64,000 nucleotides of DNA from Laetmonice hystrix (GCA_965235115.1 OZ249436.1:15254001-15318000), one strand, 5' to 3'. Positions 31,001-34,000 are shown, counted from the stretch's first letter. Made by a program: numbers and translations. The notes: generated from the sequence alone by a model not told the origin.

Positions 31001-34000
31001 ATGTATTTTGAGAACTAATATATGTACGTTTGTACATAAATTTGTTGATATTTGGTAACTTTAACTGCCATCAGACTTAAAGTTGATTGTTTTTTAAAAT
31101 TATAAAGTATATATATATATAGTATTGTCATTTAGGCAAAATACCGGTATGTCTTTTGTAGGAAATGCAAGACCTGTCCAAAGATCCACCTGCAGGTTGT
31201 TCCGCGGGCCCTGTAGGGGATGACTGTAAGTGCATTTTGTTTTATTTTTGTTGTAGTTATTATTAATTTTGATCCATGTGGCTATGTTGTTTATGTTTTG
31301 TAGGAGTTACAAGATCTTGGACGTGATCCGCCTGCACAGTGCTCAGCGGGTCCTGTGGGAGATGATTGTAAGTCGTATTTGGCCTTGTTCCTGAAAACTA
31401 ACTGTCTCCAGTGTGGCCTCGTGTGACGAAGTGTCAACTGCTATTAAACAAGACCAGTCGTACCCCTGCCAGTACAACCTGTTTCTTGATATGTTGGACT
31501 TATTCATTTTCACATTCATAGGGAAAATTTAAGTTGCAGTTCCCAGTTCAAGACTTGATGTCTGCAGCACAACATTCTGGTGCACTATATTGTGTGAATG
31601 CTCCAAAATGTCTGTATATAATTCACCTTATGCAGTTAGCTAACTGTATTCCATTTATTCTTGAAAGCGTTTGCGGTATGGAGCCTTGGTTGGCACAACT
31701 TTGCTGAGTGCAGGGTTGGAAATTCTCATGGGATCTAACGATTTCATTAAAGAATTTGTGAGATGATTCTTTTTTTGTCATTTTGTCATTCCATTTTTTG
31801 TCTAATTTTCCAAAGTTTTCCAGAGGTTCAGTAATTTGTGAAATCTTTGGTTACCCAGTGAGAATCTAGCCCTGCATACAAGAAAAATGGTCGTGGTGCA
31901 TCACATTTTCACACCATGCATAATATTGTATCAACGTCGCGTGCCCTCATTAACAATGAGCACTGTATTCCAGCAAATGGCAATCAGGATTTCTCCAGTA
32001 GGGCCTTATTAATTCATTCTATCAAATTTGTAAGAACGATTGGCACACCAAGTATTGAACCCTCAAAACTGGAGAATATATTATGAAATAAATAGATGAA
32101 ATGAAATCAAAAGTGAGTTCTGGGGAAATCCTGATGTGAAGGAAATGAGGCAGCCACATCTGACTTAGACATCAACAGCAGTCCAGACAGACAGCCATGT
32201 TAAATTGAACTGTATATAATAAAATTGTTTTTCTTCACTTGGCAAATGTTTCCTATGGTAGAGGAGTGTTGGTGTTGTATTTGAAAGACATTAATGTGGC
32301 ATACACTTTCCGAATGATCTGCATAGAATGTCTCATGTACAAAATATGATGTAGCACTGCCAAAGATGAATATTTGGAAAACCCAATGGTTTAAATTGAC
32401 CTGGAGAAGATAGTTTTAGTTTAGGCTACATGATCCCTGTCATTTCTCTTTCGTTGAATTTAAGAAAAATCGCTGGAAAACAAAAGAAATGCAGTATTTA
32501 AAATTCTTCATGATGTAAGAAAGGTTTTAAAATTGAAGATTTGAAGTGAAGTGGGTGATAACTTACCGGTATTTTGTGTTAAGTAGATGGAACCTGACTG
32601 CAAAATGCTAGAAAATAATCCAAACTGATGGATGTTCTTTGAGATCATAGAATGTTTGTCATTGGAATAGCCGACATTTCTCAGACGAATCGGGAAGGTT
32701 GTACCTGGGTAAGGAAAAAGCAGTGCTTGTTGGATGAAAACGGAAGGCAAAAGGCCAGCAAATGTTCAAAAGTCATACATGTTATTTTGGAGCATAGAAT
32801 ATTTGTAATTGTGAAAAATGTTTACATTGGAATTAGAAGCCCCCATTTTAAAGACTTGCCTCATTCTTGTGGATTGGTCTGCAAATTAATGTCTGCTGTA
32901 TTGTGATATATGGGGGTTCAAAAGTTCAGGGGGACCTCCGGGGGGGACCTAACAGCCCTCATACTTTTTCCTAGAAAACCAGTTCCTCGCATATTCTTCT
33001 TAATCAGAGATGGTACTGATATGCCAAAAGTTAAATGAGCGATTGTGGGCACACTGTGCAACACCCTTTCTACAGATATATTTCATAAATATTTTGAGAA
33101 AGATTAGGACAGTTTGCATCATGTGACAGCAAATTGCAAACCCCCACCTTATTACTACAGATCTTTTGGCAATCAGTTACACTGTTTTGAATCATAGGAA
33201 TTTCCAATGTTTAAAGTTCCTTCACCCTTTTCTGCAGATGCCTTGTGAATTACATTTGACAGGTTTTTCTGTTTTTAATGAATATTTCAAGTAGTGGTAA
33301 GAAAAGCGGAGGCGCATCCGGTGGTAGTACAATATTTATTTAACATAGTTAAATACTAGCTAAAATCCACAGAAATGGAGGTGAAGAAGAAGAAAAATTT
33401 CTAAACAGGTTATCCAGTGGACGTTCAAAATAAGCCAACTAGTATTTATTTACTTATTTTCTTCTTCATGTATTAACAGATTGGTGAAATCATTTGGTAT
33501 TAAGTTTTTAACTCCCGAAACACCTTGAAAGTGAAAACGAGTACTTAAAAATCTTTGGAAATCTGGCTGAATGTTGTGAAGTTGCAAGTTTGAAAAATAG
33601 AGCCTTTTTTGCCAACTACTTTTTCACCTAAAATTTTGTGGTTTTCTTTCCCTTGAGAAACCTGATATTACTTCTTGTCAGGCTGTACGAACCCTGATTG
33701 TTACAGTTCCTGATCTTCCTGTTTGTTTCTCAGGAAACAGGATGGACATCCACAATCATGATGTTGAAATCTAATAGACATTTCTTTCTCTTAGGTTTAG
33801 CTCTTGGCTCACAAGTTTCCATTTCAGAATATCTGTTCTACTTCCGAAATGCAGAAATTGTATACCATGTTCTGTTTCAGTGAGTAGGTAAATCTTCGCA
33901 ATATACACGTATAGTGCAAGGGTTTGCACAGGTCCTTGAAAGTACATCTACGTAAATTTTATTAGAGATTTTTCAAGGCCTTGAAAACCTCGATTTTATT

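Follow-up and report, generated by a model that had tools for sequence, protein, structure and literature searches.

Gene content of the window and anatomy of the UBE2D gene

The window analyzed here, a 64,000-nucleotide stretch of the Laetmonice hystrix genome (GCA_965235115.1 OZ249436.1:15254001-15318000), contains an E2 gene of the UBE2D/effete type on its plus strand, comprising six coding exons, the second of which is present in two versions. The coding part of exon 1 (25044-25067) encodes MALKRINK, ends in phase 0 and is followed by gtaaag. Exons 2a (31162-31225) and 2b (31304-31367) are each 64 nt in length, run from phase 0 to phase 1 and encode 21 residues apiece; between them lies an intron of 78 nt (31226-31303) that begins with gtaagt and ends in ...ttttgtag. 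The acceptor region of exon 2a (31147-31161), located within a 142-nt duplicated unit delimited by a repeat finder, is likewise pyrimidine-rich and ends in ...ttttgtag, and the splice sites of the two exons are alike, with the same acceptor letters before each and gtaagt after each. As adjacent, homologous exons, 2a and 2b agree in length and phase, and each has a separate acceptor and donor. The first-pass annotation had described a pair of 64-nt exons with perfect splice sites, 78 nt apart, and its coordinates and letters were confirmed. Exon 2a encodes a derived type of the segment, and the type encoded by exon 2b is widespread and presumably ancestral.

The remainder of the gene, also on the plus strand, consists of exon 3 (35471-35502; 32 nt), which finishes Leu30 and adds ten further residues, exon 4 (38232-38309; 78 nt), exon 5 (39124-39229; 106 nt), which carries the HPN motif and the catalytic cysteine, and exon 6 (39376-39515), the last coding exon, which includes the stop codon and whose frame matches the Pfam UQ_con profile (PF00179). 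The last exon is present in the window in one copy only. A relative of the 2a type (P0127) aligns end to end with the UBE2D2, UBE2D3 and C. elegans E2 chains, with E-values of about 1e-89. On these features of the UBC core we assign the gene to the UBE2D, or UBC4-5, class of E2 enzymes (the UBC4/5, effete and let-70 type).

The window also contains a BTB-BACK-Kelch gene (9240-12655, plus strand), an MRPS24 gene (56722-57448, plus strand) and a reverse-transcriptase fragment (59461-60048, minus strand). Two minus-strand frames approximately 1.8 kb apart (51547-51828 and 53354-53722) contain homologous P-loop segments of the Arf/SAR1 type, in which a 13-residue stretch is followed further along by TLHPS, and additional Arf/SAR1-related intervals are located at 44370-44618 (plus) and 49634-49879 (minus). 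Only one C-terminal Arf exon was seen on the minus strand, and the segment occurs a third time on the plus strand; the arrangement may reflect either a further alternative exon produced by duplication or a series of tandem genes. Outside the window, two minus-strand intervals of the same genome (G000:C1:61137740-61137835 and C1:61138273-61138380) are neighboring matches to one part of the myosin head profile (positions 121-152 and 117-152), and they have the look of alternative exons arranged in tandem within a myosin heavy chain gene.

The twin exons are old and both under purifying selection

Exons 2a and 2b are identical at 43 of 64 bases and encode identical residues at 17 of 21 positions, and different codons are used for 10 of the 17 residues that they have in common. 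A recount therefore agrees with the four changed residues and ten recoded ones reported in the first-pass annotation. The 21 base differences fall 4, 3 and 14 on the first, second and third codon positions; an excess at third positions this large (at least 14 of the 21) has a chance probability of 0.0018. Counted by the Nei-Gojobori method, the proportion of differing synonymous sites (pS) is 0.82, while that of replacement sites (pN) is 0.18 (Fisher p = 1.6e-5). Beyond the exons, the likeness between the two copies is limited to the splice signals, and the flanking intron sequence is otherwise no longer alignable. Because synonymous sites are saturated while replacement sites are conserved, the duplication is judged to be old, with both copies retained by selection on the protein. 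The comparison thus supports the view, already taken in the first-pass annotation and now backed by the pS and pN values and the third-position excess, that both exons are intact, old and under purifying selection.

The peptide encoded by exon 2b is the commonest version of this segment, occurring in 94 of 321 fetched UBE2D-family proteins, and it recurs in the solved structure of a C. elegans E2 (chain 1z2u_A); its agreement with the widespread type extends to 21 of 21 residues. Since exon 2b is both the commonest family type and the version found in the C. elegans enzyme, it would represent the old form, unchanged since the duplication. Its peptide has been kept letter for letter while the surrounding neutral sequence was randomized.

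A single standard UBE2D gene in the genome

A search of the same genome with the 2a peptide returned only exon 2a, exon 2b and one diverged, intronless paralogue at C1:33712900, and a search with the exon 5 peptide returned one further group of weaker matches, of at most 77% identity. The gene in the window is the only standard UBE2D gene in this genome, and both types of helix 1 are therefore available through this gene alone. The first-pass annotation had proposed splicing as an alternative to the gene duplication that produced vertebrate UBE2D1-4. The presence of a single standard gene fits that idea.

The intronless locus (L004; G000:C1:33711400-33714462, minus strand) contains a diverged UBE2D-like frame of 174 residues, which from its methionine reads as an E2 of 147 residues. 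Its helix 1 segment is of neither the 2a nor the 2b type, and the locus is probably a retrogene.

Only single inclusion preserves the reading frame

Exon 1 joined to either 2a or 2b, and then to exons 3 to 6, encodes a protein of 147 residues in each case. Inclusion of both exons leads to a stop at codon 30, which spans the joint between 2a and 2b; skipping of both leads to a stop at codon 57; and retention of the 78-nt intron leads to a stop at codon 43. The immediate stop on joining 2a to 2b and the frameshift on skipping both, which the first-pass annotation had put forward, are thus borne out by computation, and the results support the conclusion that the reading frame survives single inclusion only.

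The two predicted proteins differ at residues 10, 14, 15 and 20 (L10M, G14S, R15K and Q20G), positions that span the last part of helix 1 and the first part of strand 1. Across the fetched UBE2D family, positions 14, 15 and 20 belong to the most variable ones in this segment. NMR titrations of UBCH5B with the Arkadia RING (PMC8905620) gave some of their largest shifts at Arg15-Asp16 of helix 1 and at Ala19 and Ser22 of strand 1. The first-pass annotation had emphasized the backside surface around Ser22: the segment encoded by exon 2 does vary, but Ser22 itself is the same in both versions. Since only one of the two exons fits into a productive message, the gene probably yields a pair of enzymes distinguished by four residues in the region bound by partner ligases, and it is plausible that the 2a and 2b enzymes differ in their handling of ligases or of E1.

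How exclusivity may be enforced

Within the 78-nt intron, branch-like motifs TTAAT and TTGAT place candidate adenines at intron positions 41 and 47, measured from the 2a donor; these assignments are motif guesses, and they agree with the branch-like motif that the first-pass annotation had placed about 40 nt from that donor. A motif scan for yTnAy detected none within 60 nt upstream of the exon 2a acceptor. For comparison, we collected from the myosin and dynein genes of this genome about 35 gaps of less than 1 kb separating neighboring exon matches; the shortest measured 94, 99, 102 and 106 nt (a hand count, in which alignment ends are not exact splice sites). At 78 nt, the intron that separates 2a from 2b falls below every one of these sampled gaps and thus appears unusually short for this genome, which fits steric exclusion. 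We regard steric exclusion between 2a and 2b as plausible on this circumstantial evidence.

Exons 2 and 3 of alpha-tropomyosin are mutually exclusive because the branch point lies too near the upstream donor. Exons 4a and 4b of OGDH are another example of this arrangement (PMC7969005). The 2a/2b pair resembles both in its short intervening intron and in a likely branch point 41-47 nt from the upstream donor, and differs from them in that its branch points are motif predictions.

Two other modes of exclusion were considered and set aside. In genes of the Dscam and 14-3-3 xi type, exclusion depends on competing intronic base-pairing between docking-site and selector sequences. No such competing structure was found at this locus: the fold of 31060-31470 gave a z-score of -0.48, and the region 30600-32000 contained only short, weak inverted repeats, so that nothing rose above background in this one genome. 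In the JNK type, one U12-type and one U2-type site around the pair are incompatible with each other. Here, gtaagt serves as the donor of each exon, each acceptor is a pyrimidine-rich stretch ending in ...tag, and all are ordinary U2-type sites.

Exon 2a is spliced and conserved in other organisms

Proteins of the 2a type were reached by a search with the exon 6 peptide, followed by a search with the first 40 residues of the 2a-like protein that it found. Among the 120 matches listed for the exon 6 peptide, one protein carried a 2a-like segment; the best exon 6 identity among those listed was 93%, and the window's own protein is not part of that protein collection. The exact 2a peptide, placed between MALKRINK and the 11 residues that follow, was found in P0127, P0128 and P0129, and look-ups of protein clusters added P0240, which also carries it, as well as P0237 and P0238, which begin at its methionine. 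In total, the exact 2a peptide is represented by six database proteins in three clusters with at least four different C-terminal sequences, and these proteins therefore come from several organisms. Close variants of the form SKDPP[A/S/G]GC also occur, for example in Capitella teleta (CAPTEDRAFT_211499).

All the 2a-type clusters that were read, except cluster 5, hold only forms with a glycine before the cysteine, which are 2a-like; cluster 5 also holds three members with a different 11-residue segment (AQC forms), and cluster 3 includes a Capitella protein with ITRDPPAGC. Two separate Capitella genes have 2a-like segments, which indicates that paralogous genes carry the variants in some lineages.

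A pattern scan of metagenome contigs identified three that are relevant (L005, L006 and L007). In both L005 and L007 an unbroken frame runs from exon 1 through 2a and exon 3 to the stop, with joints located exactly at the splice sites predicted in the window. From the five absent introns we infer that these contigs represent messages rather than intronless copies of the gene. The coding sequence of the window differs from that of L005 at 97 of 444 bases. Exon 2 of L005 differs from the window's exon 2a at 10 of 64 bases and from exon 2b at 21 of 64, and the comparison with 2a comprises 9 synonymous and 0 replacement differences (Fisher p = 2e-7). For the rest of the coding sequence pS is 0.89. 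Synonymous change relative to L005 has affected 9 of 15 sites in exon 2a, as against about 76 of 85 elsewhere (p = 0.009, on a small sample). Lower synonymous change is often seen in alternatively spliced exons.

These comparisons support the conclusion that the 2a peptide has stayed constant although synonymous divergence is saturated, and that in other organisms exon 2a is joined to exon 1 and exon 3 in spliced messages. The first-pass annotation had held that its reading would fail if exon 2a were never spliced and were not conserved in relatives; this is not the case, as exon 2a is present in spliced contigs and in proteins elsewhere. In this group, 2a may be the common form of the segment and not the exotic one.

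The third contig, L006 (reverse strand), starts one base before exon 3, and its protein otherwise equals that of the 2a-type P0128. Such a start fits a branch in the assembly graph between two versions of exon 2 that have their last base in common; a polymorphism or a chance contig end would explain it equally well, and we therefore discounted it as evidence of isoforms.

Search for messages containing exon 2b

We also looked for 2b-type siblings of the 2a-type relatives, with residues 30-147 of P0240 as the query. Identity of at least 95% was reached only by the representatives P0129, P0127 and P0128, all of the 2a type, and no 2b-type sibling was present among the 120 representatives listed, a negative that carries little weight because clustering of proteins at 90% identity may hide sibling isoforms. 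A word search of sequencing runs returned 15 RNA or possibly RNA runs (marine, seawater and three coded organisms), each with 2 of the 31 sampled words, and six other runs with 0.74 to 1.00 of the words; from the small shares we draw nothing as to expression, exon choice or habitat.

A probable pair of enzymes from one gene, and other explanations

We believe the most probable explanation of the locus, in which we have considerable though not complete confidence, is that 2a and 2b are a mutually exclusive exon pair that arose by an old tandem duplication of exon 2 and that provides two E2 isoforms from the single standard UBE2D gene. Exon 1 would be spliced to either 2a or 2b and the chosen exon then to exon 3, giving two 147-residue enzymes that differ only at L10M, G14S, R15K and Q20G. 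Exclusivity would be enforced in two layers: the 78-nt intron is probably too short to be spliced well, and messages containing both exons, neither exon or the retained intron would stop early and should be removed by nonsense-mediated decay.

One alternative, which we judge unlikely, is that a single twin is still used and that the gene makes one protein, the second twin (more likely 2b) having been silenced too recently for the pseudo-exon to have decayed. That the relatives show messages of the 2a type only, together with the lack of a 2b sibling among the cluster representatives listed, is in keeping with such a loss. The two exons nevertheless both keep an open frame, consensus splice sites and equal length and phase, and exon 2b still encodes the widespread type at 21 of 21 residues amid randomized neutral sequence; any silencing would have to be very recent. 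Less probable again is a mainly regulatory role, in which double inclusion or double skipping lowers UBE2D levels through nonsense-mediated decay and one exon serves as the productive default. The stops at codons 30 (both), 57 (neither) and 43 (intron retained) would suit such a device, but a poison exon requires neither that 17 of 21 residues nor that the whole frame be kept in both copies, and the finding of 0 replacement changes in 2a, in the face of saturated synonymous divergence, argues against it, as does an intron shorter than any of the roughly 35 sampled, which is not suited to efficient double inclusion.

The explanation to which we give the least credence ties exon 2a to an alternative start, with transcripts that begin in intron 1, or retain its end, being translated from the methionine within 2a, which would yield an E2 that is missing the first nine residues of helix 1. 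Six proteins (P0237, P0238, P0247, P0249, P0250 and P0251) begin exactly at the internal methionine of the 2a-type segment, and the tag of the window's acceptor forms an in-frame stop directly before exon 2a. Against this, a normal exon 1 is joined to 2a in L005, L007, P0127, P0128, P0129 and P0240, and gene calling on contigs that are truncated or incompletely spliced can itself produce proteins that begin at an internal methionine. The 2a-type proteins of this kind come from transcript-like contigs, for which partial splicing, an assembly break or an internal start are each possible.

Returning to the mutually exclusive pair as the preferred explanation, a further proposal is offered more tentatively, as a real but doubtful possibility: that the pair is an ancient switch found in several marine invertebrate lineages, in which 2a would provide the everyday enzyme and 2b an enzyme for particular cells or stages, with different preferences for RING or HECT ligases, for E1 or for backside ubiquitin.

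Comparison with known systems

UBE2D is a general-purpose E2 that works with very many ubiquitin ligases, and discussions of how its specificity is tuned usually turn on paralogous genes. A conserved alternative exon that alters four residues at or beside the ligase-responsive surface (the neighborhood of Arg15 and of Ala19 to Ser22) would amount to a natural experiment, since two otherwise identical E2s from one gene would allow direct comparison of ligase choice, E1 charging and backside ubiquitin binding.

Tandem-duplicated mutually exclusive exons form a well-described class, and as a splicing phenomenon the 2a/2b pair is an ordinary case of it. The published literature searched contained no description of an exon 2 swap in UBE2D; UBE2 is unmentioned in the text and one supplement of PMC9741552, and PMC11374688 offered nothing of use. 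Human UBE2D3 events described in PMC6609318 and PMC11208542 were rejected as precedents, as they concern other exons or the 5′ UTR.

The closest parallel lies within the same family. The supplement of Martinez-Gomez et al. 2021 (PMC8373072) lists, as event 231, a substitution of a tandem-duplicated C-terminal exon in human UBE2D3, with Chordata as the last common ancestor. As in the window, a homologous tandem exon alternative there leads to two E2s that are identical except for one short segment; according to the same supplement, the unit exchanged in UBE2D3 is the final coding exon, which contributes 14 or 15 residues to the C-terminal helix, whereas in the window it is exon 2, spanning helix 1 to strand 1. 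With the exon 2 pair, the UBE2D family would have two independent swaps of tandem exons, the other being that of the C-terminal exon in chordates. Separately, the UBE2D gene models of three bivalves (P0004, Mizuhopecten yessoensis; P0009, Tegillarca granosa; P0259, Mytilus edulis) contain two consecutive last-exon segments (LLSICSLL...KYA.), which suggests a tandem terminal exon read through by annotators, in parallel to the chordate UBE2D3 swap.

In a close E2 relative, human UBE2E2, the supplementary tables of Hatje et al. 2017 (PMC5740500) likewise include a predicted mutually exclusive exon pair. That candidate is a vertebrate exon of 148 nt around the catalytic cysteine, and the translations listed in those tables for its two entries are identical, so that it represents a different event.

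The comparison with vertebrate UBE2D1-4 is one of position as well as of gene organization. The family segment varies mostly at residues 11, 14, 15, 19 and 20, and three of the four differences between 2a and 2b fall at these positions. In vertebrates, however, the variants are located in separate genes, whereas in the window they belong to one gene, in a genome without a second standard UBE2D. If the proposed ancient switch were correct, it would constitute an isoform-level specialization of a hub E2, of the kind that in vertebrates is accomplished by four genes.
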